Positions 1-62,870 of a stretch of DNA of 64,000 bases are shown here, in pieces. Source of the stretch: Psammoneis japonica (Eukaryota); assembly GCA_008632985.1 (NCBI GenBank), contig QPGO01000055.1:225100-289099 (forward strand), written 5' to 3'. Position numbers and translations under genes: made by a program. The notes under the pieces were generated by a model. It searched no databases. It was not told where the DNA came from and saw nothing but the letters and a program-made list of their open reading frames with translations. Positions within the stretch are counted from its first letter, which is position 1, and each line of letters begins with the position of its first letter.

Positions 1-470
1 GTGTGCCCCATCTCTTGAAAGTGACCCAGCACAGGGTGTTGATGCCGCGCTCCTCCCAGCTGAGGATGGCATGTCTCACCTGTTTTGAGTGTCTCAGTGG
101 CTTGATTTTTCTTGATGGAACTGAAACATGTGAAAAATTTATTGGGAATTTTTTGTCAAAATGACTGCCAGAAAGAGCGCAGGTCACACAGGTTGGCAAG
201 TGGCCCCAGCATTGTGCCGCACTTTGTCACGCAAGGCCACGACAGCTTGCGCAGCTTCGTGGTTGCCAAAATCGGCCATTCCCAGCTGGCCTTCAAGCTG
301 GTTCCTGCTCCCAATGCAAGTCACCAGCAACTGTGCCATGCAATTGTGAACTGATTGACAACACACAGGGCTTTGATCATGCAAGTGCGGTTGAAAGATG
401 ATGGATGCAGGCAAGAGTGGGGGGGACCTGCCGCTATGACCGCCTGTGACCGTTGTGACTGGAGATTTGA
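1..470. repeat. TpA-depleted degenerate sequence (end of an unidentified repeat, truncated by window edge)
   Basis: Very few TA dinucleotides, excess TG/CA, overlapping C/H/Q-rich spurious ORFs; normal TA content resumes after ~470. Confidence 0.5.
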
Positions 471-990
471 TCGTACTGCACTGTATGTACATTGGACAAC
501 AAATTTTTCTTGTTTCCTTCGAAGCAAAAAAATTACTAACTGTATGTACCCCCTGCTACAACTAGAGCTGGCATTGTCTGAAGACTGTTGCATGTTTGAA
601 AAATTATTATTTGTATATTCATACTCTAATAAGTTCATAGTCTTGAGTCATTTTATTGCTTTTGTCGTGATAAATACGGCTTAAATGTTGCAGTCATCGA
701 GCTTTTACGGGACTATGGGGACACACCGAATGATTTTAGCCAGTGGCTAAAAACCGCCTGTAGAATTCTACACGTGTATCCTGGTATGCTAAAAATTTAA
801 GCTTAACGTCTTTTAACGTCACTCCATAGTTTCTGTTATATACATATACAATGCATACCCTTTATATAAACAAACATTGAATAACTACAGCTAGTATGAC
901 AGTCATTCGATGCTGTTCCCGCGCTAATTTTCCCGCGCTTCGAACCAAAGATGCCGCCGCCGGTGTTATCATCTCACACCGACCGAAGCT

Positions 991-5954: not shown

Positions 5955-8900
5955 GGCAATTTTTTCATGTTCGTGGCCGGTTAAAGGAAAAGAGAAAAAA
6001 AGAGGGGAATCAACCGTTGAACACACACACACAATTGACCATGCAACCATGGCCAGAGTTGCACTGGCTTCTTTTGATCCAGGGTGGTTGCTGCAGGTGC
6101 AAAGAGTGGGGCACATTGCAGTTGCAGGAGGGTGACAATGTGGCACTGAGTGTGTGCCACCAGGCTGAGCAGCCCAGCTTGGGTGTCAGCCAAGCCCTGC
6201 CAGGCCAGCTGCCCTGGCTCCAGCTGCTCTTCCCAGTGTACGTGAGTTGTTGAAGGAGCACCACATTGACTCAAAGGCTGTGTTTTAAGTGGGGCAGAGA
6301 GAAAAAAACTGTTGTCTTGGCTGGTGCTTGCTTCAGACCCTGCATCATGAGCGCAAGCTCCTCTTGAGAAATGAGCAAGAAAACAGCCATTTTTGGCGCC
6401 TCTCTTTGGTTGCCCACTTGGCATTGCCAACAAATCTTGAACCAAACTTCACTCACAGTTTCTTCACTCTTCAACCACAAAACCAGGTTCAACTTTTTGT
6501 TGGCTTCTTTGTGGCTGGGGTCGCTGTTGCAGGCACAAATGGTGGGCACATGCCATGCGGCTGCTTGGCAACAAGAGAATGTGATGCCAAGCATGTGCTG
6601 CACACCAAGGAGCCAAGCAGCCCAGCTTAGCTTTGAATGGAGCCCCAGGACAGCAGCCAACTCTGGGTGATCTCAGCATGGTGTGCTTGTTTGGGCTGTG
6701 CTGCACTCACCCCACAGTGCTCTGTGTTGTGGTGGCTTGTTGTGCAAGCCGTGTGGGTGAGGAGCCAGCAGCCAGCCAGGGCCCATCTTGCAAAGGCCAC
6801 ACATGTTGACCCTGTGCAAAGCTGTGTGAGGGGGCAGGCACAGGGATTTGCAATGATGGCTTCACAGCCGTTGGCCCCAAGCTGGCATTTGATTGGGAGC
6901 CAGTGCTGAGGGGCTGTGAAGTGTGGGGTTGGGAGCCCAGCCAGCTCGCACTCTCTTTGTTGTCACAAAGTGCTGCCACAGCTGTCTTTGCATTGCAACC
7001 AGCCAGGTGCGGTTGACCCCAAGTTGGCACTTGATTTGGGGTGACTGCCAAGGAGCTGTGAAGTGTGGGGTTGGGCAGTCCAGCCAGCTCACACTCTTTG
7101 CTGACAGCAGAAAGCGCTGTCGCAGCTGTCCTTGCGCACACATGGCCAGAGCAGCCTTGGCACATCCTGCTGACAAAACTGACAAAGAAAGCGACTCTTG
7201 TGGTTGAGCCACTCAGCACACAGGAGATCTGGGCACACTCCTGGGAAGTCAAACAGGAAGGAGGGCTCAGCATTGCCGCCAGTGCCAGGCACAAATGTCA
7301 GCTTGTCTTGAGAGAGATTCGAGCCCACACAGCCCCGCGCTGGGCATCTTTGCTGGCAAAATGGAAAGCATTCTTGAGCACATTCTGGCGTGTGGGCAGC
7401 ACTGTCACCAAGAGGGCTGCTCTGCAGAGGAAGAGGGAAACAGGCAACAACATTTTGCAAGAACTGTTTTGTGTCAATGGTCGGGTGGGATGTGGCAGCA
7501 TCTGGACTTTGACGGAGCATTTGGCGGACAAAGCTTGGCACAGAGAGTTGTCCACTCAAGCTCCACAAGTGGCACTTTCCAAAGGTGACACCACACATGG
7601 GCCATGTGTTCATGCATCAACATGCCTCAAGCTGCAAGTCACATAAAAAAACCACCACCGACCTTTCAACCAACCACCATCATGGACAGAACAGGTCAAG
7701 AGGTTCAAAACAAGAGCAATCAATTGACTCTCTTCTGGTTCCATGCATTCAAGAGCTTCTTGTCCTTCTCAAATGTTTGTTGTGCATTGTTGTCTCTTTT
7801 AATTCAAGTGCAAAGAGGAGTCACTTTTCTTGTTTCCATCTCTTGAGATGTTGTTGGTTGTTGAGTGATGCAATTTTTGTTGTCACATTTTTGGAAATGT
7901 TGGCAAACCCGATCACTGCTTGATTGTCAACCCATGTACTGTTTTAAGTCTCCATGGCATAAAATGCCATAATTCCAGAGCCCTCAATTGTTTCATCAAA
8001 CGCAGTGCTTTGAAACACGTCCAACATCAACTCGACTCAGTTGAAATCCCAGTTTGTGGGCGATGAAAAATCACGAATGTCAAACAAATGGCTACTTTCG
8101 ACATCAAGATCCCCGAGTTCAATCCAAATGTGACGGTACGCCTCACAGCTTATGGCCATGACACATACAAGCATGCCTCATTGTTGTCATCGCGTCGAGT
8201 GCTCGTATCGAAAATGCCGATAGATCAAAGTTCAGGAAAAGGATGGAATACAAATTCATTTGTGTATTCATTAGTGGCATTGGCGTAATGACATTTACGG
8301 CAGAAGCAATCTAAAATCCTTGTTCATCATTGACATTTCTGTATTGCTCAGATTTTGAAATCTGACCACTACCGTTAAGCATTTAGCTGTCTTTGTATGG
8401 AAGTGGAAATGACACTTAAGTATTTACACTAACCATTTAGCTTTCTTTGTGTCGAAGTGGAAATGACACTTAACGATTTACACTAACCATTTAGCTTACT
8501 TTGGCTCGAAGTCAGACAAAGAGATTGGGCTATGGGCTTATCGTTAACCAGCCACGAGCATGAAATCTTTACCTGCGTTGGCAATTTTTTCATGTTCGTG
8601 GCCGGTTAAAGGAAAAGAGAAAAAAAGAGGGGAATCAACCGTTGAACACACACACACAATTGACCATGCAACCATGGCCAGAGTTGCACTGGCTTCTTTT
8701 GATCCAGGGTGGTTGCTGCAGGTGCAAAGAGTGGGGCACATTGCAGTTGCAGGAGGGTGACAATGTGGCACTGAGTGTGTGCCACCAGGCTGAGCAGCCC
8801 AGCTTGGGTGTCAGCCAAGCCCTGCCAGGCCAGCTGCCCTGGCTCCAGCTGCTCTTCCCAGTGTACGTGAGTTGTTGAAGGAGCACCACATTGACTCAAA

Positions 8901-11205
8901 GGCTGTGTTTTAAGTGGGGCAGAGAGAAAAAAACTGTTGTCTTGGCTGGTGCTTGCTTCAGACCCTGCATCATGAGCGCAAGCTCCTCTTGAGAAATGAG
9001 CAAGAAAACAGCCATTTTTGGCGCCTCTCTTTGGTTGCCCACTTGGCATTGCCAACAAATCTTGAACCAAACTTCACTCACAGTTTCTTCACTCTTCAAC
9101 CACAAAACCAGGTTCAACTTTTTGTTGGCTTCTTTGTGGCTGGGGTCGCTGTTGCAGGCACAAATGGTGGGCACATGCCATGCGGCTGCTTGGCAACAAG
9201 AGAATGTGATGCCAAGCATGTGCTGCACACCAAGGAGCCAAGCAGCCCAGCTTAGCTTTGAATGGAGCCCCAGGACAGCAGCCAACTCTGGGTGATCTCA
9301 GCATGGTGTGCTTGTTTGGGCTGTGCTGCACTCACCCCACAGTGCTCTGTGTTGTGGTGGCTTGTTGTGCAAGCCGTGTGGGTGAGGAGCCAGCAGCCAG
9401 CCAGGGCCCATCTTGCAAAGGCCACACATGTTGACCCTGTGCAAAGCTGTGTGAGGGGGCAGGCACAGGGATTTGCAATGATGGCTTCACAGCCGTTGGC
9501 CCCAAGCTGGCATTTGATTGGGAGCCAGTGCTGAGGGGCTGTGAAGTGTGGGGTTGGGAGCCCAGCCAGCTCGCACTCTCTTTGTTGTCACAAAGTGCTG
9601 CCACAGCTGTCTTTGCATTGCAACCAGCCAGGTGCGGTTGACCCCAAGTTGGCACTTGATTTGGGGTGACTGCCAAGGAGCTGTGAAGTGTGGGGTTGGG
9701 CAGTCCAGCCAGCTCACACTCTTTGCTGACAGCAGAAAGCGCTGTCGCAGCTGTCCTTGCGCACACATGGCCAGAGCAGCCTTGGCACATCCTGCTGACA
9801 AAACTGACAAAGAAAGCGACTCTTGTGGTTGAGCCACTCAGCACACAGGAGATCTGGGCACACTCCTGGGAAGTCAAACAGGAAGGAGGGCTCAGCATTG
9901 CCGCCAGTGCCAGGCACAAATGTCAGCTTGTCTTGAGAGAGATTCGAGCCCACACAGCCCCGCGTTGGGCATCTTTGCTGGCAAAATGGAAAGCATTCTT
10001 GAGCACATTCTGGCATGTGGGCAGCACTGTCACCAAGAGGGCTGCTCTGCAGAGGAAGAGGGAAACAGGCAACAACATTTTGCAAGAACTGTTTTGTGTC
10101 AATGGTCGGGTGGGATGTGGCAGCATCTGGACTTTGATGGAGCATTTGGCGGACAAAGCTTGAGCACAGAGAGTTGTCCACTCAAGCTCCACAAGTGGCA
10201 CTTTCCAAAGGTGACACCACACATGGGCCATGTGTTCATGCATCAACATGCCTCAAGCTGCAAGTCACACAAAAAAACCACCACCAACCTTTCAGCCAAC
10301 CACCATCATGGACAGAACAGGTCAAGAGGTTCAAAACAAGAGCGATTCATTGACTCTCTTCTGGTTCCATGCATTCAAGAGCTTCTTGTCCTTCTCAAAT
10401 GTTTGTTGTGCATTGTTGTCTCTTTTAATTCAAGTGCAAAGAGGAGTCACTTTTCTTGTTTCCATCTCTTGAGATGTTGTTGGTTGTTGAGTGATGCAAT
10501 TTTTGTTGTCACATTTTTGGAAATGTTGGCAAACCCGATCACTGCTTGATTGTCAACCCATGTACTGTTTTAAGTCTCCATGGCATAAAATGCCATAATT
10601 CCAGAGCCCTCAATTGTTTCATCAAACGCAGTGCTTTGAAACACGTCCAACATCAACTCGACTCAGTTGAAATCCCAGTTTGTGGGCGATGAAAAATCAC
10701 GAATGTCAAACAAATGGCTACTTTCGACATCAAGATCCCCGAGTTCAATCCAAATGTGACGGTACGCCTCACAGCTTATGGCCATGACACATACAAGCAT
10801 GCCTCATTGTTGTCATCGCGTCGAGTGCTCGTATCGAAAATGCCGATAGATCAAAGTTCAGGAAAAGGATGGAATACAAATTCATTTGTGTATTCATTAG
10901 TGGCATTGGCCTAATGACATTTACGGCAGAAGCAATCTAAATTCCTTGTTCATCATTGACATTTCTGTATTGCTCAGATTTTGAAATCTGACCACTACCG
11001 TTAAGCATTTAGCTGTCTTTGTATGGAAGTGGAAATGACACTTAAGTATTTACACTAACCATTTAGCTTTCTTTGTGTCGAAGTGGAAATGACACTTAAC
11101 GATTTACACTAACCATTTAGCTTACTTTGGCTCGAAGTCAGACAAAGAGATTGGGCTATGGGCTTATCGTTAACCAGCCACGAGCATGAAATCTTTACCT
11201 GCGTT
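5955..11205. repeat. Near-perfect direct tandem duplication, unit ~2625 bp (5955-8579; 8580-11205)
   Basis: Identical ORF sets offset by 2625; only about ten differences seen; TGCGTTTC at both outer ends, TGCGTT at the junction. Confidence 0.95.
8380..8512. repeat. 54-bp minisatellite, ~2.5 copies (second instance 11006-11138)
   Basis: Unit CATTTAGCTNTCTTTGTNTNGAAGTGGAAATGACACTTAANNATTTACACTAAC. Confidence 0.85.
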
Positions 11206-13629: not shown

Positions 13630-15311
13630 ACCGCCAGGACCAGACAACGCATGTTAAGCGTTTTTGAATCAAGTGTAATTGAGCTTTATGTAACTTCTCA
13701 TTTTCACTAGAAAGTTTGCTGTGGAGTCTTCTCGCCGACGACTTTTGCAGCTAGCCTCGACACTGAGTCCAACTACTTTCCACGGTTGACTGATCCCACA
13801 TCTAACTGAAGTCATGACATGTCTCTCACTGTCATGTGAGGGCATTTCGCGAAGCGCAAATCTTTCATGTACGGTCTCTACGCCGCTGTTGTCTGTTAAG
13901 AGGGTAAGAGCATTAGTCTGTGGAGCGACTTTCATTGATTCGTGCTTTTCGCATCAACTTGAAAGACGGCAACCATGAGACAGTTTCTCAAGTAGGTCGT
14001 TTCGTCTCGTTAACTCTTTGTTTGACCATCAACAACATGACCCCAAATGGCACGTCGCCGTTGTGAAACTTGCCTGCCATGCCATGCTCATTTTTGCTGG
14101 AATGATCAGGCTTCATCACAAGTGCCACTCGCCCATCACGTTCCCTCCTGTTTTCTTCAACATTCCTTTGACTCTGCTGTGGGATGGCAGAACAGTCCAG
14201 GCTTCCCTGACTGCAAACTCTGCGTGCATGCAGCCCCATCCACCTCAACCAAAGCAACAAGGTCATGAGTTGTGCAGCTGTCCACCACTTGAGGGGATTT
14301 CTCATCTGCTGCATTAAATTTGCAAGTTCTCCTCCGCTTCCCACTGCCGCACCATCCAATCATCTGCTGGGACAAAGTGCAAAAGATGCACAAAAGAGTG
14401 AAAGCCACAGCAGGTGCATGCTGCACATGACCAGAGTGCAATGAACAATGCCGTCCATTGTCATCTTTCACAACTCACAACCTGATTGACATCTTTTGCA
14501 TGTCAGCACACCTGCAGTCTCATCCAAGGAACTGACAGTCTGTGGCAGTGCCTCATTTTCAACTGGAGTGGCTGCTGCAATCAAGTTGTTGGCAATGGAT
14601 CCACAGAGTGATGTGGAAGAGGCGATCAATTTGCCACAGTTGGAATCTGGGAAACCAGCAACACATGGCAAACACATGGCAACAAAATGAACAGGATGAC
14701 CATGCCCAGTGCAGCAAATTGGTTTTGTTCAAGTGCAACAGGGAGACGGTCACTCCAGTGCAGGAGATGAGTGTCAACAGGTTCCTCATGCATTTGGAGT
14801 GGACGTCAGCAGAGCTGGACTCCGCAGAAGAAAAAATTGCCCCAGCTTGCTCCCTGTTCACACTTTTCAGCTGGCGCAGGTCTTCTCTTGGTTGTCCATC
14901 CAGAAATTCTTGAGGTTCTTCCCAATGTTGCAGCAAGAACAGTTGGAAACAATCGCCCAGCTGACCCCATGTGCGTGACAGCTCTGCTCGCATCTTGCAA
15001 GTCATGTCTTGCTGATCTCTTTGCCCTGCCAGAGAAAAAGAAGAGAGCCGCTTGCCTCCCAACATGCTGCTGGAGCTGTGTTCAACCAAAACCGGCTTGT
15101 TGGCAGAACATTGGAGATCACCATGTCCAACTGCAGCGCGCCTCTCTCTCAAGGCTTGAGTGTTCCTCCATTCCTGCTGTCATGATTGACCTCTCTCCAA
15201 ACTTGCCATGGCTTTTGACTGCAGTGCAAGGCATTGCTGCAGGAGCAAATGGGGGGGGGGCACTTGGCAGCATCAATGGCCGATGAGAGAATGCTGCCAA
15301 GCAGACGTGAA

Positions 15312-16544
15312 GATGCATTTTCAGAAGCAGGTGGGAATCCAGGTGACATGCTGGGCCTGCGGAATTCTGCATGCAAGCTCTGCAGCAAAATTGTTGGGTG
15401 ATGAACACAGGCCTGTTCCAGCTCCAGGTGATCTGCTTTTCATTGCGTGAGAGGCCGATTTTCTGCGCAGTTTGGCGCAATCAACTCCTTCAATTTTGAT
15501 CATTTCAAAAATCGAAAGGTGAGTGCACACCCGAAAATGCATGTAAAGTGTGCACTTGCCCTTCGATTTGGCAAAAAATGGATTTGGAAAAAAGCCAATT
15601 GCACCAAATGCACAAATTTCCAAATGATGGGAATCGAACCCGCGCGGAGCACCTGGAGCTGGAACAGGCCCACATCAATGATCGCCAACAGAACATGAGG
15701 CAATTTTGTGAATGCACAAACTCATCCACAATTGAAGCACATCATTTTTTGCTTGGCCAGGAGCATTCTTCAGACATTGAAGAATGTGCCTGGCATGCGC
15801 TGATGGTCTTGCAATTTCGACATGCTCCAGCCCCAGGTGACGCACAAAACAACAATCGACTTTGAACACAATTCATGCATCTTTTAGTGCATGCAGCATT
15901 TTCACATAAAATGCTTGGACAGATTGACTTTTGTGGGCTTCTAGAGTGTGCACATTTAAATGGTTTTTTGAGGGGTGTTCAAGTCCTCATGGGACCTGTG
16001 TCACAAACTTCCTCAGCAGACTCAGCGCTGATTGTGCATCAGCAGAGTTGTGCTGAGATTTCTTTGCAGGTGGAAAACCCACCAAGCAGCATCGTAGAAA
16101 GATGTGTTTGGGTGACATTCAAATGATGGCAACATTTTTGCCGAAAATCATCCATTGTGTCACGAATCTTTTGACGCAATGAAAAACACAGATGGCACAG
16201 TGACAATGATGTTGCAGCACTCACACGAGTCTTGTCAGTGTTGCAAAACATTTGTGTTTGTGTGAATCCATGCTTTTGGTGGTGAAAGATCAATTGCAAG
16301 TTGGGGCCATGCAAAAATTGCACAAATGTCGTTTTTGTGCACGATTTGGTTCACGTGCGGCTGGAGCACGTCTTTCGTTCAACAAAACATCTGGGGTTTT
16401 GCAAAACAGCAAGCCTGGCAGAACAGTTTTTTGGAAGATCACACATCATGGAAACACATGTGTGAAACATGCAATGGATGATAAAAAAACAATTGTGTCA
16501 CATGTCAGCACTGCAAGCTCCCACCCAGAGCTGGGGAACGCATC
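15312..16544. mobile_element. Degenerate ~1.2-kb TIR element, same family as the MITE at 55935-56330
   Basis: Shared blocks (GCAGGTGGGAATCC..., TCAATGATCGCCAACAGAA..., GTCAGCACT...GCTCCCACC); decayed termini; internal copies of GTTCCAGCTCCAGGTG. Confidence 0.7.
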
Positions 16545-32304: not shown

Positions 32305-32335
<31 letters not shown>

Positions 32336-35633: not shown

Positions 35634-35666
<33 letters not shown>

Positions 35667-45849: not shown

Positions 45850-48130
45850 CAGATGATGCCCATTTTGGGTGTCTGTCTTCTCTGCCTCAATCACCATTTT
45901 CCATGAGCAATGCCCACTGTGCACTGCACTGGAGCAACTGCCTCTTAGAGTCTAGACCAATGCAGCACAAGTCACAAGAAATGTGGCAGCATCTGCGAAG
46001 TTTGAAGCAAGCGTGACTGCGAGTGTCAATTTTTTACGGGATTCGCCAACGCATTTTGCACTCAGTCACAAATGCGACGCGCGCTCTTCATCACCACATG
46101 CAATTCCGACTTTTGTTGCACTGAAACACTCTTGCTTTGCCAACCCATCTTTGTTGCGATGCCACCCCAAACATGATTGCATGAATTGCACTTGTCATCC
46201 TCTTGTTGAATCTCCTGCTGTGCCTCTTTGATGCTGGTGAGCAGAGCCAGCGCGCTGCCACCACAACATTGGCCATTTTCTCTGTGAAAGTTGTTGAACA
46301 ACTGCCAGCATTGTTTTGCTGTCAATGTGATTCTCCTCACAATTGGAGAAATTTGCAAAGCTTTTCTTGCTCTCCTCATTCTGTCTGTCATGTGCTCATT
46401 GTCCAGCTCTGGCTCGGACCTCACATTGCTGGACTGTGACATGATGAGAGCTTTTTGGTCATGCTCATCTGCGTGTCACGCACTCAGATTTCTGAGTGCA
46501 CTTTTCTGCAAAATTGTGCCATCATGCTCCCTGTTTTTTGCCAAGCCGAGGGCTTTTTATCATGGCTGTTTGTCAGAACAAACATTGGCTCTGCTGGGTG
46601 TTCTCTTTGGTGTCTGAAGAACACACCTGCACAAGGTGGAAATGATGGTGTGCTTCACAATGAAAAAGGAGGTGCAATTGCAAAATTGCCGCTTTTTCTG
46701 TTGGTGATTGTTGGCACATTTTTGCTGCCTGGCAATTTTGCTGTGGAGCTTGTGCGCAGAATTGTGCACACAAATGCCACATGGAGTTCCACCTCCTGGG
46801 GCTAGAACACATCTTTTGCAGCTTTTTCTTTGAAGCTCACAATGCTGTTGCAGCCACTCTTGCGGCAACAGCATCTGTGTGCAGACAATGCATCAGAGCT
46901 TTTCTTCATTGTCAACTTTGCTGCCCACATTGTAGTTCCTTGGCTGCTGTTCTTGAAGTGCAAATTGCTCAGCCATGGTCATGTCAGATGTGTGGTGCAC
47001 CCCCAAAGATTGCAGGGCCTTTGAAGCAGAGTTTGCTGATGCTGCCCCATCAAAGCTGCTGCGGCTGCTTGAAAATGACTCTTTGAGATCCCAAGCATGC
47101 AAGAGCCATCAGGCAAGATGTTGGGTTGTGCACTGAGATGAGTTGACAAAAAGCAAACAAGCTGTGGCTCAGAGTCATTGCTTTGCCAACAGTGCTTGCA
47201 GCAGCTTCACTCCTTGTCTCAACAAGCTGGTGCTCTCTGGAGAATTTCCCCCCCCCCAGCCAGCAGGGAAGCCAAGCACTGTGCTGCACTTGTGTTGTCC
47301 CCCCACTCAGAACAACTGGCAAGTTCAGTTGTTTGTGAGTGTTGAGAACATTTCCCACCAGGTTTGGTTGCGCAACACGACCTGCTTCAGAAAACTGTCG
47401 AGGTTGCGTTGTTGTGTGACAGATGATGGCAGCTTGAAAAAGTCTTTCAAGAGACACTCCCCCAAGCCTGCGTCAAAGTTCATCGCATGTCGGCAACAAT
47501 GAAGAAACGCTGGGAGATGGAGTGTTTCGTGAAGCTTTTGAAGCTTCCATCCGCGCCCTTGGCAGAGCTGCAGCTGTGAGCAGCCCTCTGGCTTCTGTTG
47601 TGGAAGTCATCTCCATGACTGCAGATGCTGCTGTCACCTTGAATGATGACAACTTGGTGCTCATGCCCTTCTTGAGCAAGCTTGTGACAGTGACGCGCGT
47701 TTGTCAAGCAGCCAGTGGTGAGATTGCAGAAAGAGAACACAAATTGAATCTCTGGTGGTGTGGCGCAAGTGTCTTGATGACCAAACAGATTTTGTTAAAA
47801 GTTCATTGGGTGCAAGTGCACACATGAAAGCAATTTGAAAATTGCAGGCCACAAAAAACTTGTGAGACAACAGCACAAAAACAACAGCAACCAGGAAAAA
47901 ACAGAGAAAATGTTCGTGGTGAAGATGTGCTGGTGTGTGCTGGAGAGAGGAGCCCGGAGAAAATGTGGTTGTAGTGTCTGTCATTGATGCATCATTGGCT
48001 TTCCATGCAGTTGACGAGCATGTGGGATGGGGTGAATCAAAATGTGATGGATTTGTGACCCGATTTTTTTTTGACACCCACACTCCACCGGCACATTTTT
48101 TGAAGCAATGTTTTGCATTGAAGATTTCTC
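45850..48130. repeat. Unclassified TpA-depleted degenerate sequence
   Basis: TA nearly absent, strong TG/CA excess, no recognisable protein. Confidence 0.55.
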
Positions 48131-48489
48131 AATAACACGGTGACAGAACACCCATCACATCATACAGCCAAGGTGATTCCACGAGAGCACGCTTTCTGCT
48201 TTCTGCTCACAACATCATATCCCTGCTTATTTTTCACGAGCTCTAATTTGCACACGAACCACATGCTGGTTCCTGTGCATTTACGTACATTTTATACCAG
48301 TCGCATCGTAGTGGGGTGTTGTTCGCCGGCCCTGACGAACTCTTTCTTTGACATAAAATATTTTTCACGACGGCCGGCACAGACTGCCGGCTCGGTGGAC
48401 AAGTGTTAAGTGGTACAAACACGTAGATCCTACGTCAGATTTACAGTACTCAGATTTATTCGGTACAAATCTACGCAGCATTTTGCGTA

Positions 48490-54268: not shown

Positions 54269-54799
54269 CTCTGCAATGTGTTCTGATGTGTGGCAAAAGC
54301 GTTCCTTGTTCTTTGTCTCGCTAATCGTGATGCCGAGTTTCTCTGTCGATGCATTCGGACTTTTATCTGACACGATGACATCAGAAGATGTTAAATAGTG
54401 GTAAATGAATCTTTTGCTATTTAAGTAAACATTTATCCCAAGAACATTTTCATGATTAAATACGGACGTGGCAACATAACACCACGACACACATACGTGC
54501 CGTACTGTAGTGTGTTCTGTACAGTACAATCATGGGTGAAAAATGAGTGGCTGACGGTGCTGCGCTGGCGGCGCAAGATGACACCTTCTTCCGTCGCGAA
54601 TGCCTTTGAAACTTCAACATTCTTCTTTCTTTCTTTTCGTCATCGTTGAAATCTTTGTCATTGATGCGTCACACCTTTCTTGTTCATTTTATGAGCACAT
54701 TAAAATATCTAAAGTTATGTATAAAAAACATGCCCTTTTTCGTTTGCACTTTGCACAGCTTTTCCGTTCTTTTCTCCTTTTTTTGCTTTTTTCCTTTTT

Positions 54800-55520
54800 C
54801 ATTCCTTTACCCTGCCGGCCTCCTGTCCGACCACCCCCTTGAATGCCCCGCCGACGTAGGCGTCCAACTCACACCCGGCTCTGCACCGCCTGACGCCCCA
54901 TCCACCCACCAATTTTTGGCCATGGACGTCACTGTGCCGCCCGCCACCCCGCTTCCTGCACCTGGTTTGCCCATCCCTGAAAACCCACTTGACAAGGCTC
55001 ACCTCAGCAGCGCACAGGACAAGCTCCTCGGCTGCTCTGCATCATCTGCTCACGGATCCGACATCATCGATGCCATCAACCAAGCCGGTCTCTTCCTTCT
55101 CCCTTTCATCCTCGACCACCTCGGCGGCATTGGCTGCCATTTCCATGCCTTTTTCTTCGGCACCTCCACCACAACTTCCTCTTCCACACCACCCCTTCCT
55201 CCCAAACCACCCTGGACAAGTCCTGCCTCCTTTTCCAACTCTCAGCCATCCTTTTCCGCCTGCACCAACTCACTCCTCGAACCCTCCGATCTCCTTGCCA
55301 ACTCCAACTCGGCCTGGAAACAACTCTCTCAAGACCGCTTCGGCTCTTCACACCATTTTCAGCACCATCGCTTTGGGCCTCCCCTCCCTTTGCTCTCTCC
55401 ACCCATCTTTCTGCGCATCAAGCTCTTCTCCTCCGCCACCCTGCCATTGCCAACTCCTCCTCTCTCAGCCATCTGTCCGCACTCTCGGTCCACCCTTTTT
55501 CTCCCCACGCTGCCATGAGA
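54800..55520 (+). mobile_element. 3' fragment of a non-LTR retrotransposon with restriction-like endonuclease (CRE/R2-type), degenerate
   Basis: (R)PADV...LAMDVT...K...LLPFILDHLGGIG spacing typical of RLE domains; pyrimidine-rich, TA-depleted. Confidence 0.55.
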
Positions 55521-55934
55521 CCCAGGCCTTGAGCACTGTGACTTGAAACTGGCATGGCAGGCGCACTCCGGATGAGCGCACAGACCATCACCTTGGTGAC
55601 AACACGGAGAAATTGTCAAAAACCCGCCGGAGCCGACGATGACATTGACGCAGCAGACAAGGTGTCCAAACATTCCTTGTTTCTTGGACCATTGCAACAG
55701 AAGCTCCATTGGACCCTCGTCGATGTGCCGTTGCAATCATCCATTTGGAGACGTGCAGTTTGGTGAGAAATGTTGAAACACACCGCTCCGCTTTGTCGTG
55801 ACACCATGTTGCATGCAGACGACGCATCAACTCGTCATTTGCGGATTTTCGGCACCCACTGAGTTAAAGTCCGAGTTCATTAAAAGGTGAGTAAGTTGAA
55901 AATCAAAATGGTGTTGTCAATGCATCCGAGGCTC

Positions 55935-56330
55935 GACGCGTTCCAGACGCAGGTGGGAATCCATGTGACATTGGGCCCGCAGACTTCTACGTGCGAGCTC
56001 CGCACTGAAATTGTGCGGCAATTAAAATCTCAATGATCGCCAACAGAAAATGAGGCAATTTTGCGAACGCACAAACTCACCCATGATTGAAGCACATCAT
56101 TTTTTACTTGGCCAGTTGCATTCTTCAGACATTGAAGAATGTGACTGGCGCATTGTTGTTTCTATAAATTTGTCACACAAAACGTCTGGGGCTTCGCAAA
56201 ACAGCGAGTCTGGACATTTTTTTTTAAATGTCACATGCAGAAATCTGCGTGCGAAACATACGACGGATGATGAAAATTGTTGATGTCACACGTCAGCACT
56301 ACGAGCTCCCACCTGGGGCTGGAACGCGTC
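55935..56330. mobile_element. 396-bp MITE, ~24-bp TIRs, 4-bp TSD (GCTC)
   Basis: GCTC|GACGCGTTCCAGACGCAGGTGGGA ... TCCCACCTGGGGCTGGAACGCGTC|GCTC. Confidence 0.85.
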
Positions 56331-57481
56331 GCTCACCACTTGTTGTCTCACTCAACTTTCTTGCCGCCGCAGCCACTCTCGCTGTCTTGCCTGGCATGAG
56401 CACACATCGACAAATCCAATGTGTCGTCACATCGTCAAGCCCATTTGATCAATGGCATTGACCAGACGAACATTTTTGAAGATTTTGACAATGCAACTGC
56501 AATGCATTCAGCCAAGTGTTCTTGAGTGGGAGAGAGTCGGGGGCGGATGAGAGTGAAAATGAAGAATGAAGTTGGCGCACGGTTCAAGAAAAAAGCATTC
56601 AAACATGGTTGACAAAACATTCTGATGCTGTCATTCTGTGGAATGACAAACAACAGTGAAGAGCTTCTCCCTGGCTTGCACACACTCTCTAGATTGATCG
56701 CAAAGACACAAATGTCAAATCTGAGAACAGAAAAGTGCGGCTTGCAAACGAGTGTTCGTGGATTGCTTCACCCATTTACAGCATGAAAGAGGTCAGATAT
56801 AGTTGTCACGAGGTCAAAGACAAACTAGAAAGTAGAACATTGCCATAAAATCGGTTTGTGATGATGTTGTCATCTAGTCTCGGTGTCGAGAACGAGTCGT
56901 CAATTTCACCTCATCGTACAGCGAGTCACGTGTTTTCAATCCCGTATGAACCATTCGATTAAAAATTTTGGTAGAATTAGCTAGACTTTGACCCCAGCTA
57001 GAGCCACAAATTACACAAGATATGAGCATTATCAGTCTCAGACTCTTTAAACAGATGCCTTGCAAGGATGTAATAGGTATGTATTGTTCGTGGTATGTGG
57101 CACTTCAAAATAGAACTAACTTTTCGTGGAGCACCTTTATTACACGGGCAAGTGCGAGAGTCAACATTCAGTGATTGGTTAGTAACTAACGTTCACCCCC
57201 ATTCTAGGCCCCCAAAAGTGTGCTGAACTACGTATCTGGATACTGTTAGTCGATCGAGGTGGGTAAACGGGGGGTTAATTTTTACACGTGGCATCCCGAA
57301 GCTGGGACGGAAAGCTGCTTCGCGCGACCCTTCCGCCACACATTTCCCCAGACCCACCCCTTCCAATTTCCAATGCCATAGACTCCCTAATCAAAAACGA
57401 CTGTCATATGAACAACAGCACGAGTAAGAAGCCAGCACCATCATCCATCATCAGGGAAGAGAAAAGATAAGTGGTAGTGAT

Positions 57482-58398
57482 GTGGCTTTCAGACCAATGA
57501 CGAGCCCCCTAAAGCCATTTGGATTGTGGATCTACAAGCACTGCCTTCATGATTGCTGTCAGTTTCGTCGAAAACCGGATGTAAAAGACCAACCTATCAA
57601 TGTTTGCGGGGTTATCCAATTCATTGCTGCAAAGTTCTTACTTGAAGTCAGCGGTGCTGCCGGAGCTGTTTGGGGGTCTTCTGAAGCTTTGACATTGCGT
57701 CGTTCTAGCCGTGAAATCAACAATGAGTCATGGCGTCTTGTCGCGATTGCCGTTGGCCTGGTGTTTGTCGTTCGTTTCTGGTGGCATGCCAAACACTATT
57801 TTCAACACGAACGGGATTTTCTCCCCATCAAATTGAATCATCGACGGATATGGAAACTTCCCTTTCTGCAAATCTTTTCTTCGAAATTCTTATTGGAAGT
57901 CTTCGGTGGCACTGGAGCAATTTGGGGGTGTTCAGAAGCTCTGACCTTGCGGAACGATACGAATCAACATGATTGGAGAATTGCGGCAATAGCAGTTGGT
58001 GCCACGTTTTAATCCGTTGGATCTATCAAATACTTGCCTATTGTCTTTATTTGGCTCCCTTATGGTATAATCCGACGTCGATTCTCATGACGATGGTCCG
58101 TTGTTACGAAGCCTTGGTGGTCAAATTTATTCTCGAGGTGTTGGGGGCCGCAGGAGCCGTATGGGGGTTCTCGGAAGTTGTATACCTTCGCACACCACAG
58201 ACACTTGCTCTGTGGCGGACTATAGCTGTGGTTACGGGTGTTGTCTTCATGGTTCGATGGCTTGCTCACTTGTATTTCTTTATCAAAGATGAACGAAGCT
58301 CTGCGCATACTCAGGATATGGTCCAACCACAAGATACCAAAACGGAAGAGGTTCAAGATTTGGAGATGTCGGACCTTGCCTTGAAGGAAGCATCTTAG
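57482..58398 (+). CDS. Membrane protein with three internal KFxLEVxGxxGAxWGxSE repeats; 1-bp frameshift at ~58010; 5' end uncertain
   Basis: ORFs 57482-58012 and 57973-58398 hold repeats 1-2 and 3; adding one T in ACGTTTT-AATC joins them. Confidence 0.7.
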
Positions 58399-60916
58399 TT
58401 TTCTCCTTGTTACCATTGTGGTTCGCCCGGTATGGTACGAGATGCGCTAGTGTATCTTCCTTGGTTTATTACTTGTATGTTCTGAAGTTCGCTTAGCTTT
58501 CGTTGCTTTTACTTGTCTGTTCCAGATCACATTGCAGTACCTTGGTTGTAGCGGCAATGATTGACTCTTTTGTATACACCCGATGTGAGTACACGACTAG
58601 TGTACCATGAGACCAGCATAAACAAGCTATGCAAACTCTCAAGAACGAGCGCATATCATTATTGTGCCCGTCTGATGATGCTGATCAGTAGTGTACCCGC
58701 TCCACATTTATCGTTGTTCATGAAGGAACGATTTATGACATATTTTTCGATTTGTCGCAAACGCTAGTGATTCAGCTGGCTGCTGGTGCAAAGTACGAAG
58801 TATGGAAAGTGAACCCTTTTTGGTAGTCACCAATGGTGCTTCAAGGGAGTCTTGCCACCAGTTATTTATACCCGAGTGATGATTGAAGATGCGATTTATC
58901 AACTCAAGTACTCAACAGCATGGTACCGAGGGTCATCAAGCGGCAAACTGGATGCAACAGAAACGATTCGGGTCCTTCAAAAACTGGCGCGCCTTAGAGA
59001 ATAGAATAGAGCTTTTCTTGGTTGTCAATGATCTAGGCCCTCTAGCGCCGTCTCCACAGTTCCCAGCTCCAATGATTGCTCCAGCCAGTGCGAAACGCTC
59101 CTCTTCAACATTTTTCGACTGCTAAATACCTGCGCTGATGCTATCCCGAGTTAATTTAGCTAGCCTATCTAGGAGAGAGTAGAGGTATCAAGTATCATAC
59201 CCTCTACTACTAGCTTCAGTTAAGAGCGAGGGTTTGGTCGGTGTCTTCCGTCGGTCGGTCTTCCAATTCTTTGAGCTCCTTTTGCCGATGCAGTAACACA
59301 AGATAGCGGTGTGGTACAAAACTAGAAGCGACGACATCAATGCATACAACGACACATCTACGACCGTCATCGTAGTCTATTGACGTACGTACGGATTAAC
59401 TTATACTCAAATAAAGATTGCTATGTCATACTCTGAGTCTTTCTACTTCCATTGAAAGAGTTTCAAAGAGTCAAAAGTCGCTATTGAAATCCCTCCGCTA
59501 TTTCGGCAGAACACTTGAAACTCCCTAAAAACAAGTGAACACGACGAATCCATAAGATATGCAGGCGATCAGCGCCGAAATAGTCCAACACACATCGACG
59601 ACAAGCCTTGGGGGGATACTGTAACGAATATCCCAGCATGGACCCCACCTGAAAGAAAAAGAGCAGTGTGGTACGAGAACAGAAACCATGACATCAAAGT
59701 GTGCGATGACATCGCAAGAGCTACGGCCGTCATCGTAGTCGTACGGAATAATTTACACGCCAATAAAGATTGCTACAATGTACTTTTAGTAATTCTACTT
59801 CTATTTTGAAGGTCCAAAGCATGTTTCTTAAAAAGTGAAACACGCCAATATCAGAAGTTGATAGAAATCGGTCGCGTAGGATAACGTTGCCTCAAGAGCG
59901 CCATCAGAAGATGGAGCTCAAGCTTTTCGTATCTTCAGAGTGAAAAGTGTCACTCAAAAAATGTAAAAGGGGGGACGTACTACGGAGACAACAAGAAAAC
60001 TTGCGAGTCAACCGCGTTCTAAATCAACACTCCCTACGAGTGAAGACTTACCGTGTCATGTCACTGATACGACGGAACCCCAAACCCGCGTTCCGTCAAC
60101 GGCATGATCTGCTTGGCGAGCTTTTGCTGCTTCACAGATGAACGCTGCTGTCTGTTTCAACAGCCGTGACCTGACGGGTCAAGCGAACAGGCAACTTCCT
60201 ACGCTCAAAGACACGAGAGTGACATGGACTCAAGGCCGGAGAGACGCATTCGATTTGCCCCGACCTCTGGACTTAACTGGCAACACCTACGCCACCTAGA
60301 GACAACACGCCATCAAGCAAATGAGTTGTGGAATGCCAAACAAGAGCGAGCTCTCAATCCAGAGGAAGGGCGAGCCATCCTCGGAGATTGCGGCTTCCGG
60401 CTTGGCAAACAACAAGACATCGTGCGAGACGACGATTTTGTGATCGAAACGAAAGAATTTCCGAGACATAGAGATTTTGTTTGTTTCGTGACCGTTGCTA
60501 AATTTCTCAATCACTATCATTTTGTGTGTATCTTTGTAGAATTACTACCATGATTTCGCATGTAAAAGATTCATGGGAATGCAGTGCTTTCAAAAATACT
60601 ACGGATTCCTACGTGCACTTTACTGTAACCGTCGAAAATGCAAAAGACTTGCCGAGCGACTGACTGACGAAAAAAATCTTCAAATTCGCACTCCAAATTC
60701 ACAATCCAATTCCGCCCACAACGCAACAAATTTGACATTGAAGAGCAGAGAATCAGATGACAATGAAGGTCAAAGTTGTGCACAAAGCATGGCCTTTTTT
60801 GGTTTGCGCCTTTTCGTTCTTTTCTCCTTTTTTTGATTCCTTTTTTCACCCACACGTGGAGGGCACCACTTCCACGAACGACAGCAAGAAGAAGCAGAGC
60901 ACACGAGAAAGAGCAC

Positions 60917-62870
60917 TTGGATTGTGGATCCACAATCATTGCCTCCATGATTGCTGTCAGTTTCATGGAAAACCAGATCTGAAAGACCAACCCACCAATG
61001 TTTGCGGGGGGTGTCCAATTCATTGCTGCGCAAAAGTTCTTGCTTGAAGTCTGCGGTGCTGCCGGAGCTGTTTGGGAATCTTCTGAAGCTCGGACATTGT
61101 GTCGATCCAACCATGAAATCAACAAGCACAATGAGTCGTGGTGTCTTGTCTTGATGATTGTCATTGGCCTGGTCTTTGCCACTTGGTTTTCAACATGAAC
61201 AGGATTTTCTCCCCATCAAATTGAGTCATCGATGGACGTGGAAACTTCCCTTTCTGCAAAGCTTTTCTTCAAAATTCTTGTTTGAAGTCTGTGGCAGCAC
61301 TGGAGCAATTTGGGGGTGTTCAGAAGCTCTGACCTTGTGGAATGATGCAAATCAACATGATTGGCAAATTGCTGCTGTGGCAGATGGCACCACGTTCTCA
61401 GTCCATTGGAGATCTGTCAAATGCTCGCCTGTTGTCTGCAATTGGCTCCCTTGTGGACCAATCTGATGTTGACTCTCATGACAGTGGTCCATTGTTGCAC
61501 AAAAGCTTGGCACCCAAACTTGTTCTCGAGGCATTGGGGGAAGCCCAGCAGGAGCCATGTGGGGGGGGGTTCTTGGAAGTTGCTTCTTGCTTGCCCTGTG
61601 GCAGACTGCAGCTGATCATGGCGGGTGTTGTCTTCATGGTTTGGTGGCTTTTTCACTTGCCTTTCTTTGTCAAAGAAGATGAATGGAGCTCCACACATGC
61701 TCAGGATGTGATCCAACCACAAGACACAAAAATGAAAGAGGTTCAAAATTTGAAGATGTCGAACCTTGCATGAAAGGAATCATCTCAGTTCCCCCCTTGT
61801 TTCTGTTGGTGTTTGCCTGGCATGGTGCAAGATGCATTCATGCATCTTCCTTGGTGTGTCACTTGTGCATGTTTTTCTGAAGCAGGCTTGGTTTTCGTTC
61901 CTTTCACTTGTCTTTGCCATGTGACTTTTTAGTCACATGGCTGCACCTCAGATGCAGGGGCAGTTGCTGACTTTTTTGCATGCACTTGTCATGATTGCAA
62001 GACCTGTGCACCCCAAGTCTGACATGACCAAGCTGCGCAAGCAGCTCTCAAGAATGAGCAAAGCCATGCTTGCCATGAGAACGAACAAACGTTGTTGTTG
62101 TGCACGTCTGATGAGGCTGATGAGTGCACCCGCTCAACTCACCAAGAGTCATTTTTGACACATTCAACTTTTTTTGGAAGGAATGACACTTGTGATGCAT
62201 TTGGATTTGTCATTGCTGTCATTGATTCAGCTGGCTGGTGCCAAGTTCGAGGCGCATGGAAAATGCCAAAACCTGCGGCGCTTGTGACAGACAGCACCTG
62301 AGTTCTTTTTGTTGGCAGTCGTCAACGGCACTTCAAATGAATCTTTGCAACCAGTTGCTGGCCAGCATCAGAGTGGTGATTGAAGATGTGATGCAATGAC
62401 ATGGCACTGAGGGTTGACAGGCAGCAAACTGCAGATGCGACAAAAAAGCAACTCGGCTCGGCGGTTCTTCAAAAACTGGTGTGACAGAGAACAGAGTGGA
62501 GTTTTTCTTGATTGCCAAGGATCCAGTGCCATCTCCATGGTCCCATTTCCAATGACTGTGTCAGTCAGCGAAACTCTGCTCTTCAACATTTTATGACTCG
62601 TGCTTGATGCCTGCCGCCATCCCGAGTCACTTGCACTTCTTGAGCCACCTTGTCTGGCCACCAGCTGCAGAGGAGAGCATCATGTAGAAGCACCCTCTGG
62701 AGCAGCTGGAGCAGCCACCAGCAGCTGCTGCAGTGCCCTCTTTAGCTAGCTACTCTCTACAAGAACTGCTCTCTAGCTAGAGCAGAGGCTAGCTCCAGCA
62801 GAGAGAGTGGAAACAGCGGCGAAGGTTTGGTCCGCGTCATCGATCGTCGGTCGGTGTTCGAGCTCCTTTA
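60917..62870 (+). pseudogene. Hypermutated duplicate of 57517-59285 (membrane protein gene plus downstream flank)
   Basis: Colinear alignment; TA sites of the first copy read TG/CA; frameshifts present. Confidence 0.92.

Follow-up and report, generated by a model that had tools for sequence, protein, structure and literature searches.

Comparison of duplicated copies in a 64,000-bp stretch of the genome of the diatom Psammoneis japonica (hereafter the window) shows that a mutational process acting at the level of nuclear DNA turns TpA into TpG or CpA, by an A:T to G:C transition at either base pair. This process acts site by site and in place, solely inside kilobase-scale domains with sharp borders. 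Its targets are decayed retrotransposons, other repeats and the dead gene duplicates that abut them, and it is near saturation, its pace being at least tens of times that of substitution in the background. Targeted mutation of this type is rare and has been reported so far in one unrelated alga, Bigelowiella natans (Mettrop et al., 2026; bioRxiv 10.64898/2026.01.13.699255), the diatom being the second lineage. Overall, the observations are probably best explained by a chromatin-directed TpA mutator of the B. natans kind in this diatom.

TA-depleted domains and their content

The depletion of TA in the window is confirmed. Eight domains, whose limits were set from the gaps between successive TAs, total 29,865 bp (1-470, 5955-7930, 8580-10555, 14010-17310, 25317-37840, 42484-48133, 54690-56690 and 60626-62592) and hold 121 TA, whereas the background observed/expected ratio (o/e) of 0.60, taken from the other 34,135 bp with their 1,467 TA, predicts 1,096. 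A sequence-only reading had placed all eight domains to within about 100-300 bp of these limits, and had noted the absence of TA in 27001-27300, which lies inside a TA-free run of 2,493 bp (26337-28830). The loss of TA is coupled to a gain of TG and CA, with o/e values of 1.5-2.5 within domains versus about 1.15-1.19 in the background. Most borders are sharp, TA per 100 bp falling from 4-10 to 0-1 over one or two bins (about 100-200 bp). Depletion is partial in 54690-56690 (20 TA versus 72 expected). The features are the following, with the strand where one was assigned:

1..470: TA-depleted domain continuing beyond the window start; 2 TA versus 16 expected, CpG o/e 0.41
5955..7930: TA- and CpG-depleted block in a 2.6-kb tandem unit; 6 TA versus 69 expected, CpG o/e 0.20
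8580..10555: twin of the 5955-7930 block, the tandem units being 99.1% identical
14010..17310: TA-depleted domain; 13 TA versus 133 expected, CpG o/e 0.40
25150..25316: incompletely converted rim of the large domain, duplicate of 39630-39871; 12 ancestral TA
25317..31100, + strand: decayed Ty1/copia retrotransposon; 9 TA versus 215 expected, CpG o/e 0.10
31100..36140, + strand: second retroelement, two diverged copies (31488-32667 versus 34822-35999, 76% identity)
36140..37840: tail of the large domain, depleted in both TA and CpG
42484..46035, + strand: partly TA-depleted domain with normal CpG (o/e 0.88); 27 TA versus 128 expected
46035..48133: TA- and CpG-depleted repeat adjoining a DNA polymerase epsilon fragment; summed contig depth to about 29x that of the flanks
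54690..56690: copy from a family of very abundant repeats, with part of its TA lost; CpG o/e 0.78, contigs summing to a depth about 500-750x that of the flanks
57516..58798, + strand: unmutated paralog with normal TA, the reference copy in the alignment to the depleted copy
60626..62592, + strand: dead TA-depleted gene copy (homology 60914-62250); 2 TA versus 83 expected, CpG o/e 0.42

The domains had been described as decayed transposable elements and duplicated gene pieces, and those whose content could be identified are retroelements, abundant repeats or pieces of duplicated genes. No DNA identity was found for 1-470, 5955-7930 and its twin, 14010-17310, 36140-37840 or 42484-43480, and no viral insert was seen among the identified contents of the domains in the window. 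A stretch of 141 bp in 14010-17310 recurs in the high-copy repeat at 56.0 kb, where it is 88% identical. At 43484-45600, a fragment of the C-terminus of DNA polymerase epsilon is frameshifted over three frames; a second copy of it, with its TA intact, lies elsewhere among the contigs of the sequencing run.

The Ty1/copia element retains gag-integrase (about 25934-28165) and RT-RNase H (29034-30668) regions, the latter with four TGA stops, and the second retroelement has an RT-like ORF at 34673-35668, TA having been lost from both of its copies. At the 16 Tyr columns conserved in the outgroup family of the copia RT, the window element has Cys at 7, His at 5 and Tyr at none. It keeps all five Trp columns, and conserved Arg in 2 of 20 columns (most often replaced by H in 4, K in 3, S in 3, and Q, W and C in 2 each). 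In the second retroelement, whose two copies together give 18 Tyr columns, Cys stands at 11, His at 5 and Tyr at none, and a control homolog keeps Tyr at 7/9 columns. The destruction of Tyr codons anticipated by the sequence-only reading is thus borne out, Cys and His occupying 12/16 and 16/18 Tyr columns in the two elements, and the process has erased TAA and TAG stops in the domains as well. In a protein database sample biased to intact ORFs, Tyr-less homologs numbered 0/86 for copia and 0/83 for the second family. Among 79 related copia loci drawn from other metagenome records, 3 carry the same signature in partial form, with Tyr replaced by His or Cys.

If heterochromatin held clusters of modified bases, miscalls could in theory be limited to domains, so that modified DNA would have caused sequencing, base-calling or assembly errors there. 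De Bruijn contigs from run X1 match 45820-46517, 46679-47404, 47530-48244, 60731-61326 and 61308-64000 with 0-1 differences at a depth of 58-78, and one of them spans a domain border; this run, of which the platform is not on record, is possibly the source data of the assembly itself, which makes it a not fully independent check. The contigs, at a word depth of about 60-fold that equals the flanks, nevertheless agree with the domains as a single haplotype and lack the mixture of TG and CA that strand-wise misreading should give. The partial signature in the three metagenomic copia loci also argues against an artefact, as does the de novo appearance of the same signature in Illumina-sequenced B. 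natans lines (Mettrop et al., 2026). A base-calling artefact is unlikely because the read-derived contigs reproduce the domains at flank depth with 0-1 differences, and artefacts in the broader sense, assembly errors included, were judged extremely improbable.

Direction and sequence context of the changes

The TA-normal gene at 57516-58798 aligns with 60914-62250 in the depleted copy over 1,234 bases at 81% identity. None of its 55 TA sites is kept in the depleted copy, where 26 read TG, 19 CA and 10 something else; the claim that TA becomes TG or CA between paralogs is therefore confirmed for 45 of the 55. Of 61 changes at bases that belong to a TA in the reference copy, 51 are A>G or T>C, whereas AT to GC changes outside TA and CG show no excess over GC to AT (37 versus 33), so that enrichment of A>G and T>C at TpA, on which the proposal of hypermutation depended, is what the gene pair displays. 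TG and CA outcomes are interleaved along the depleted copy (26:19) without strand runs. Between the two copies of the second retroelement, 24 of the 86 dinucleotide pairs that differ at both bases are TG/CA discordances, the next type numbering 4. These patterns indicate that the change occurred on DNA, in place and on each strand independently. The core of the sequence-only reading, a domain-restricted A:T to G:C change at TpA on either strand of DNA that consists of repeats, decayed retroelements and duplicated genes now dead, is supported. Since the 99.1%-identical tandem units (which include 5955-7930 and 8580-10555) carry identical conversions, their duplication came after hypermutation.

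That reverse transcription carried ADAR-like A-to-I hyperediting of retroelement dsRNA into the genome might be envisaged from the shared preference for a 5' U/T and from the two domains that are retrotransposons. This explanation is already contradicted, and was left with next to no credence, by intron retention and by discordances that arose in place. A contig from run X2 splices out 58434-58524 (GT..AG) from the 57516-58798 gene, and the dead copy at 60626-62592 retains this intron; the 24 TG/CA discordances arose in place after the retroelement copies had duplicated. Furthermore, the polymerase epsilon fragment does not belong to a retroelement, TG alternates with CA along a single molecule, and TAG is a slow context here, whereas ADAR prefers a 3' G.

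Polymerase eta makes A to G errors at WA, with TA as a hot spot, and heterochromatin that replicates late, if copied or repaired in an error-prone way, could produce domains that mirror a replication or repair regime. The changes are, in contrast, strictly confined to TA: all 55 TA of the reference gene are lost, whereas AA became AG at 4 of 69 steps and the 142 TT steps changed at background level (TT to TC 10, TT to CT 5). With no AT to GC excess away from TA and CG, and with saturation at one dinucleotide that is unlike a polymerase error spectrum, such mutagenesis is a very improbable source of the domains.

The TA that survive in the domains are rich in YTAR (63/124, versus 286/1,469 in the background, p 1e-13) and poor in ATAC (1.6% versus 16.3%). 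A context fit orders the 3' neighbor as T>C>G>A, with CTAG and TTAG enriched among survivors, TAG being a slow context. Similarly, among the 12 ancestral TA of the 25150-25316 duplicate, 5/6 YTAR were kept and 5/6 others changed. The base pair of TA that changed, as predicted from the flanks, leaned in the predicted direction (24 cases versus 12, p 0.065). The richness of survivors in YTAR implies a T-A-Y preference of the process, in which T-A-Y sites go first and YTAR sites last. T-A-Y on one strand reads R-T-A on the other.

Separation from CpG decay, trigger and candidate chemistry

A subset of the domains is also depleted in CpG, a feature absent from the sequence-only reading. Among 500-bp windows with TA o/e <0.25 (n=56), CG o/e is below 0.5 in 36 and at least 0.7 in 16, and one of 66 TA-normal windows is poor in CpG. 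The depleted paralog keeps 12 of 57 CG, 21 having become TG and 17 CA. In the second retroelement, CpG loss concerns the 31-kb copy alone, and 37 CpG gone from it are still present in the 35-kb copy. CpG decay is thus a process separate from TA loss, and slower, and is probably the usual deamination of 5mC in such domains as are methylated too. As a cause of TA loss, 5mC deamination was rejected, in agreement with the sequence-only reading: C to T changes cannot remove TA, and 16 of the 56 TA-poor windows have normal CpG.

How the domains are singled out bears on the possibility of a RIP-like trigger, in which duplicates would be sensed by homology and mutated, with no reading of a chromatin state. 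The depleted domains that could be identified do all consist of retroelement, abundant repeat or duplicated gene sequence. However, one member per gene pair was changed, the expressed copies (the 57.5-kb gene and the second polymerase epsilon copy) keeping their TA; each of the 99.1%-identical tandem units has a 650-bp TA-normal part, and 41 TA there are common to both; the abundant repeat at 59342-60100 is TA-normal; and the conversions in the 25.2-kb duplicate fade within the homologous stretch and not at its end. The main target in B. natans is, moreover, single-copy (Mettrop et al., 2026). A homology trigger is accordingly regarded as quite improbable.

The favored reading remains a chromatin-directed mutator, in which silent chromatin, and not homology between repeats, would recruit an enzyme. 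This enzyme would modify one base of TpA, which in the following round of replication would pair as G or C. Inosine formed from A is read as G, and we know of no enzymatic route to a clean A:T to G:C change other than deamination of A to I. Deamination of adenine to hypoxanthine, by a deaminase of the TadA/ADAT or another type, is the leading guess for the chemistry, to be held tentatively, at somewhat less than even chances. We infer that the domains are silent chromatin and that the enzyme is a deaminase; a scan of 19 long ORFs of the window and 107 ORFs of the domains showed no deaminase domain. We know of no established natural DNA adenine deaminase that is targeted to chromatin.

The main alternative to adenine deamination is thymine oxidation, by which a TET/JBP-type dioxygenase would oxidize T at the TpA of silent chromatin to 5hmU or 5fU, mispairing with G and giving T to C. 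Sequence cannot tell whether A was hit on one strand or T on the opposite one, and all the counts fit both. Base J is located at TpA of both strands in kinetoplastid telomere repeats, the 5hmU of dinoflagellates prefers TpA, and 5-formyluracil induces A:T to G:C changes, all of which favor this possibility; 5hmU itself, on the other hand, is weakly mutagenic. A literature search returned no report of 5hmU in diatoms among the matches listed, all of which concern dinoflagellates, and the available part of one dinoflagellate 5hmU paper states no TpA preference. The B. natans authors favor adenine deamination (Mettrop et al., 2026). Thymine oxidation was considered unlikely, with a better standing than the other alternatives.

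Relation to known systems

The view that no natural system of this kind had been described is outdated. In mutation-accumulation lines of B. natans, 231 of 302 new mutations fell inside two integrated viral regions, and A>G or T>C changes on TpA made up 20/20 of those in the virophage region and 210/211 in the giant-virus region; a raised de novo rate was measured, active in some lines only (Mettrop et al., 2026). According to the same preprint, low-TpA coding sequences of that alga are enriched in reverse transcriptase and DDE domains, and its authors propose an ADAT2-like adenine deamination. By analogy, the process in the diatom would be of the same kind: in both, A>G and T>C are limited to TpA, yield TpG or CpA on either strand and are restricted to regions, and the long-term footprint consists of clustered windows poor in TpA and rich in CpA and TpG. 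B. natans is a chlorarachniophyte (Rhizaria), whereas diatoms, to which the present host belongs, are Stramenopila, and no report of TpA hypermutation in diatoms was found in the literature. The footprint here is saturated, with o/e 0-0.1 over kilobases, compared with a Rho of 0.45 for the giant-virus insert, and the targets identified are the copia and second retroelements, abundant repeats and dead host-gene copies, among which no viral insert was seen. The separability from CpG decay, the flank preference and the evidence against a homology trigger are absent from the preprint's main text (Mettrop et al., 2026).

As in fungal RIP, a dinucleotide-specific transition hypermutation disables repeated or selfish DNA in discrete domains. 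RIP makes TpA from CpA, however, whereas TpA is destroyed here (0/55 kept), which upholds the description of the process as the reverse of RIP; RIP affects both copies within one sexual cycle, whereas one copy is affected here by site-by-site accumulation, and the host is not a fungus. 5mC deamination at CpG also yields TpG and CpA, and a CpG o/e of 0.1-0.4, together with the loss of conserved Arg in copia, shows it in a subset of domains, but the removal of TpA sets the process apart, as does the absence of CpG decay from the 35-kb retroelement copy.

Among enzymes, a 5' U/T neighbor is favored by ADAR, ADAT (TadA; U33-A34 in tRNA) and engineered adenine base editors. All hits here are at TpA, which agrees with this context but does not make the enzyme a member of the group. 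The natural substrates of ADAR and ADAT are RNA. ADAR's taste for G on the 3' side differs from the order T>C>G>A seen here, and the T-A-Y preference is likewise unlike fungal TAD2/3 mRNA editing. TET/JBP enzymes (base J, 5hmU) modify T, with TpA contexts reported, in silent or repetitive protist DNA; this hydroxylation is an epigenetic mark which, to our knowledge, does not drive saturating T to C mutation.

A wider reading, to which we give slightly less weight than to adenine deamination, is that of an old and widespread defense of the SAR clade: a natural, chromatin-guided DNA editor shared with B. natans, which would cleanly convert A:T to G:C at T-A-Y in the double-stranded DNA of the nucleus and would depend neither on cytosine methylation nor on homology between repeats. 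If so, transposons, integrated viruses and host DNA lying in the same silent domain would be permanently disarmed, and the partly converted copia elements of the unrelated metagenomes would represent the same process caught early.

Extent, contents and authenticity of the TA-depleted domains

The 64,000 bp of the window have a GC content of 48% and contain 1,593 TA dinucleotides, whose very uneven spread is beyond what chance can produce. Per 500-bp window, the observed/expected ratio (o/e) of TA lies between 0.4 and 1.0 across most of the window and at 0-0.1 in discrete domains, where the o/e of TG and CA rises to 1.5-2.5, so that the domains listed as TA-poor in an earlier, sequence-only reading are indeed so. 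Most of their borders are abrupt, with TA falling from 4-10 to 0-1 per 100 bp over one or two bins. The eight domains, 29,865 bp in sum, hold 121 TA, compared with 1,096 expected at the o/e of 0.60 of the remainder of the window (the background), and the longest run devoid of TA, 26337-28830, measures 2,493 bp.

TA-depleted domains, delimited by gaps between TAs
1-470
5955-7930
8580-10555
14010-17310
25317-37840
42484-48133
54690-56690
60626-62592

In these domains TGA accounts for 1,438 of the 1,616 stop trinucleotides (1,351 of 2,658 outside), and stop-to-stop ORFs of at least 100 aa occur on both strands at 3.98 per kb (1.87 outside). The domains are thus a hazard for annotation, a trap for gene callers in which spurious ORFs are twice as dense and whose Tyr-free 'proteins' evade Pfam.

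Recognizable sequences in and near the domains
23912-24754: ORF with DUF6824 (E 1.8e-21)
25317-31100: Ty1/copia element, near full length
about 25934-28165: its gag-integrase part, matched in the upstream region of a related element (E 9e-29)
29034-30668: its RT-RNase H (best E 1.9e-115; homologs with RVT_2; named matches from Cylindrotheca)
31100-36140: second retroelement, two copies
34673-35668: ORF of the second retroelement family (named matches 'Reverse transcriptase', Seminavis robusta)
43484-45600: fragment of the DNA polymerase epsilon C-terminus, split over three frames (DUF1744, zf_DPOE_2, zf-DPOE)
46.0-48.7 kb: abundant repeat family, summed contig depth ~29 times the flanks (indicates abundance and does not give a copy number)
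54.7-57.3 kb: very abundant repeat family, summed contig depth ~500-750 times the flanks (to be read in the same way)
60914-62250: dead gene copy, paralog of 57516-58798

Both retroelements were detected by homology search only. Pfam gave no match on whole six-frame reads of 25230-37800 (X at stops), and only 3 of 107 stop-free domain ORFs passed the curated cut-off, each of them from the polymerase epsilon fragment. Comparison by tblastn of the other depleted domains with 79 metagenome copia loci yielded a sole match, 25317-29034, and neither this search nor domain-ORF Pfam identified 1-470, 5955-7930 and its twin, 14010-17310, 36140-37840 or 42484-43480. Copia LTRs were sought for a test of 5'/3' LTR discordance; the alignments were all at or below shuffle level. 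Each of the gene-derived pieces adjoins a repeat. The organism is a diatom, as first hinted by the DUF6824 ORF. Organism-named relatives of three query proteins are diatoms throughout, with a best identity of 56% for a Trm5/TYW2-like ORF.

Several other features were observed. The repeat member 55340-56673 is TA-depleted in part, with near-normal CpG and no Pfam or copia match. The unmutated gene contains, at 57428-58398, an internal threefold repeat of a Gly/Ala-rich, membrane-helix-like segment without a Pfam family, and the dead copy at 60.9-62.3 kb has the same repeat layout. At least 12 tandem 33-nt (11-residue) coding repeats occupy 38596-39156 within ORF 38318-39253, and ORF 12476-13552, also without a Pfam family, carries 93-nt coding repeats at 13019-13348 and 141-nt repeats at 12731-13012.

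Contigs of the sequencing run X1 match 45820-46517, 46679-47404, 47530-48244, 60731-61326 and 61308-64000 with 0-1 differences, and one of them, 6,865 nt long, spans a depleted domain into normal sequence. Their word depth over depleted domains (58-78) equals that of flanking single-copy genes, and each site is one fixed base pair, with no TG/CA mixture. The window stretch is present in the runs of one study and the platform of X1 is not on record; since X1 may be the assembly's own data, its support is not fully independent. A sequencing or assembly artefact behind the loss of TA is nevertheless very improbable: the same footprint is found in metagenome contigs of other records, and lines of Bigelowiella natans sequenced by Illumina acquired these mutations de novo, according to a preprint (Mettrop et al., bioRxiv 10.64898/2026.01.13.699255).

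Direction and sequence context of the changes

The gene 57516-58798 and its diverged copy 60914-62250 are 81% identical over 1,234 aligned bases. None of the 55 TA sites of the normal copy is TA in the depleted one: 26 have become TG, 19 CA and 10 something else, so that 45 of 55 follow the conversion that the sequence-only reading had described for paralog pairs. The changes are also enriched at TpA. Differences within TA amount to 0.53 per base, corresponding to one hit per dinucleotide, versus 0.125 per base outside TA and CG, where there are 37 AT->GC and 33 GC->AT changes; AA has become AG at 4 of 69 positions. Among the 57 CG sites of the normal copy, 12 are kept, 21 are TG and 17 CA. 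These counts suggest that TA was hit in this domain at least tens of times faster than the background, and faster than CpG by a factor of more than 2.6. GC-biased gene conversion is rejected, because AT->GC changes are not in excess away from TA. A polymerase-eta-like error process is unlikely.

In domains that lack a paralog in the window, conserved protein positions tell of the same direction. At 16 Tyr columns of the copia RT-RNase H conserved in 40 homologs, the window encodes 7 Cys (TGY), 5 His (CAY) and 4 other residues, with Tyr absent throughout. Retention is 5 of 5 columns for Trp and 2 of 20 for Arg, the commonest Arg replacements being H (4), K and S (3 each), followed by Q, W and C (2 each). 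The replacements by H, Q, C and W can be read as the signature of CpG decay. Over both copies of the second retroelement, 18 Tyr columns hold 11 Cys, 5 His and no Tyr, versus Tyr in 7 of 9 columns of a control homolog. The predicted destruction of Tyr codons is thus borne out in both elements. Tyr-free relatives were absent from the protein database among 86 copia and 83 second-family homologs, a collection in which gene callers favor intact ORFs, so that the absence has little weight. The polymerase epsilon fragment was compared with a second copy in the run's contigs using 40 listed of 655 differences; among the 33 of these that lie in the fragment, at least 13 TG or CA of the window face TA, and at least 5 further ones face CG. 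Foreign DNA with its own TA avoidance and selection against TA are both rejected, since formerly present TA is seen to have been converted when the domains are compared with the paralog and with outgroups.

Loss of CpG is a separate process. Of 56 windows with a TA o/e below 0.25, 36 have a CG o/e below 0.5 and 16 have one of at least 0.7, and among the 66 windows with a TA o/e of at least 0.35 a single one is CpG-poor. The second retroelement's 35-kb copy (34822-35999) is TA-depleted but retains 37 CpG that became TG or CA in its 31-kb copy (31488-32667), and the polymerase epsilon domain has lost ~79% of its TA and almost no CpG. Such TA-poor sequences with intact CpG indicate that TA loss is independent of, and ahead of, CpG loss. 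The latter would be the expected product of 5mC deamination where the domains are also methylated.

The TAs that survive are a biased sample. YTAR (TTAA, CTAA/TTAG, CTAG) makes up 63 of 124 survivors versus 286 of 1,469 background sites (odds ratio 4.3, p 1e-13), while ATAC/GTAT accounts for 1.6% versus 16.3% and ATAT for 0.8% versus 6.6%. Similarly, when the partly converted stretch 25150-25316 at the edge of the large domain is set against its normal duplicate (39630-39871), 5 of 6 YTAR sites were kept and 5 of 6 other sites changed. An additive two-strand model, hand-fitted to ten context ratios, orders the rates by the 3' neighbor of the hit A as T>C>G>A or, read on the opposite strand, by the 5' neighbor of the hit T as A>G>C>T. 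That the flanks also decide which base pair is hit is suggestive only: the counts were 12:6 versus 3:3 in the paralog alone (p 0.63), and 24 versus 12, leaning in the predicted direction, in three pooled data sets (p 0.065, not significant). No flank effect is reported in the main text of the preprint (bioRxiv 10.64898/2026.01.13.699255).

Mode of conversion and targeting

Along the depleted paralog TG and CA outcomes alternate and strand runs are absent, which indicates independent hits and not a single processive sweep of one strand. The two copies of the second retroelement, 76% identical, differ by discordant TG<->CA at 24 of 86 double-difference dinucleotide pairs, the next type numbering 4. 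Such discordance marks a single palindromic step of the ancestor that underwent conversion separately in the two copies once they had been duplicated. The tandem 2.6-kb units 5907-8579 and 8538-11205, on the other hand, are 99.1% identical and have their conversions in common, so their duplication came after hypermutation. Each consists of a 2-kb block depleted of TA and CpG and a 650-bp TA-normal block with 54-nt sub-repeats.

A 91-nt intron, spliced from the normal copy in a contig of the run X2, is retained in the depleted paralog, which is therefore a DNA duplicate; RNA editing is an unlikely source of the changes. Contigs of X2 skip 51896-51987, 52596-52693 and 58434-58524, the last being GT..AG, and these stretches are probably introns. 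Because of these skips of 91-98 nt, one of them GT..AG, X2, recorded as 'DNA?', resembles RNA. Its contigs do not cover 46002-47335 and 60676-62676, holes that carry no weight as evidence of silence.

Homology as such does not seem to trigger conversion. Within each gene pair the expressed member is left unaltered, the near-identical tandem units retain 41 TA in common, the abundant non-coding repeat 59342-60100 has normal TA, and in the 25.2-kb duplicate conversions fade within the duplicated stretch. The target might instead be a regional state, in that silent chromatin nucleated on transposons would be read as the cue. The non-coding repeat as a whole (59342-60675), which abuts the depleted gene copy, has units of ~355 nt and normal TA over 59300-60100, and the contig depth of its relatives adds up to 30-110 times that of single-copy flanks; it may be a young insertion.

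Chemistry, precedent and spread

The resulting sequence is identical for a modified A on one strand or a modified T on the other. Adenine deamination at TpA would yield A:T->G:C and is to our knowledge the only clean enzymatic route to this change; it is tentatively favored here. In the substrates of TadA/ADAT enzymes the target A is preceded by U, and the 3' preference of ADAR does not match the 3' order found in the window. The principal alternative, a TET/JBP enzyme that oxidizes thymine, appears rather improbable. The literature matches listed for 5hmU in diatoms all concern dinoflagellates, and the accessible passages of a 5hmU paper give no TpA preference (PMC6313786). Deaminase-SAM-Tudor proteins, described as restricted to stramenopiles by Iyer et al. 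(2011; PMC3239186), offer a lead to a candidate enzyme.

The sequence-only reading knew of no natural system of this kind; one is now in print, as a preprint (Mettrop et al., bioRxiv 10.64898/2026.01.13.699255). Mutation accumulation in 15 lines of B. natans placed 231 of 302 nuclear mutations in integrated giant-virus and virophage regions; those in viral regions were confined to some lines and consisted almost entirely of A>G/T>C, and every GC-biased one lay at TpA. The genome contains 124 clusters of TpA-poor, CpA- and TpG-rich windows, RT and DDE domains are overrepresented among its low-TpA coding sequences, and an ADAT2-like DNA adenine deaminase has been proposed (Mettrop et al., bioRxiv 10.64898/2026.01.13.699255). 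Literature and broader searches for TpA depletion or hypermutation in diatoms and algae returned this preprint only, so that the present case would extend this kind of process to a second lineage, distant from the first. Unlike in B. natans, the diatom footprint is saturated and its targets are retrotransposons and pseudogenes; the points on CpG, flanks and targeting are additions to that report.

Metagenome contigs were scanned with a copia RT alignment, and the 79 loci retained have a median TA o/e of 0.64. Three outliers, with TG/CA o/e of 1.4-1.7, are depleted in part.

Partly TA-depleted metagenome copia loci (Tyr/His/Cys at conserved Tyr columns)
L074, 1-1900: TA o/e 0.17; 2/6/1 of 10
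L067, 200-1400: TA o/e 0.31; 7/4/2 of 14
L061, 200-900: TA o/e 0.30; 5/4/2 of 11

Two control loci kept Tyr in 14 of 15 and 11 of 15 columns. The depleted part has TA-normal flanks on both sides in L067 and downstream in L061, and YTAR represents 11 of the 34 surviving TA of these loci versus 16% (p 0.017). The RT frames of L074 and L067 are free of stops, and these loci may therefore represent an early stage of the same process. Small as the numbers from three loci are, the process probably extends beyond this strain.

If one and the same process operates in both a chlorarachniophyte and a diatom, it is more than the curiosity of one alga. With a chemistry opposite to that of RIP and APOBEC, A:T->G:C, it would, if true, stand beside them as the second major class of genome defence by mutation. 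With two hosts so far apart, comparative genomics can find the enzyme, and some diatoms are models amenable to genetics; a naturally occurring enzyme for A:T->G:C in nuclear DNA with a defined trinucleotide context would be of interest for base editing. The finding would also bear on local variation in mutation rate and on the evolution of GC and dinucleotide content.
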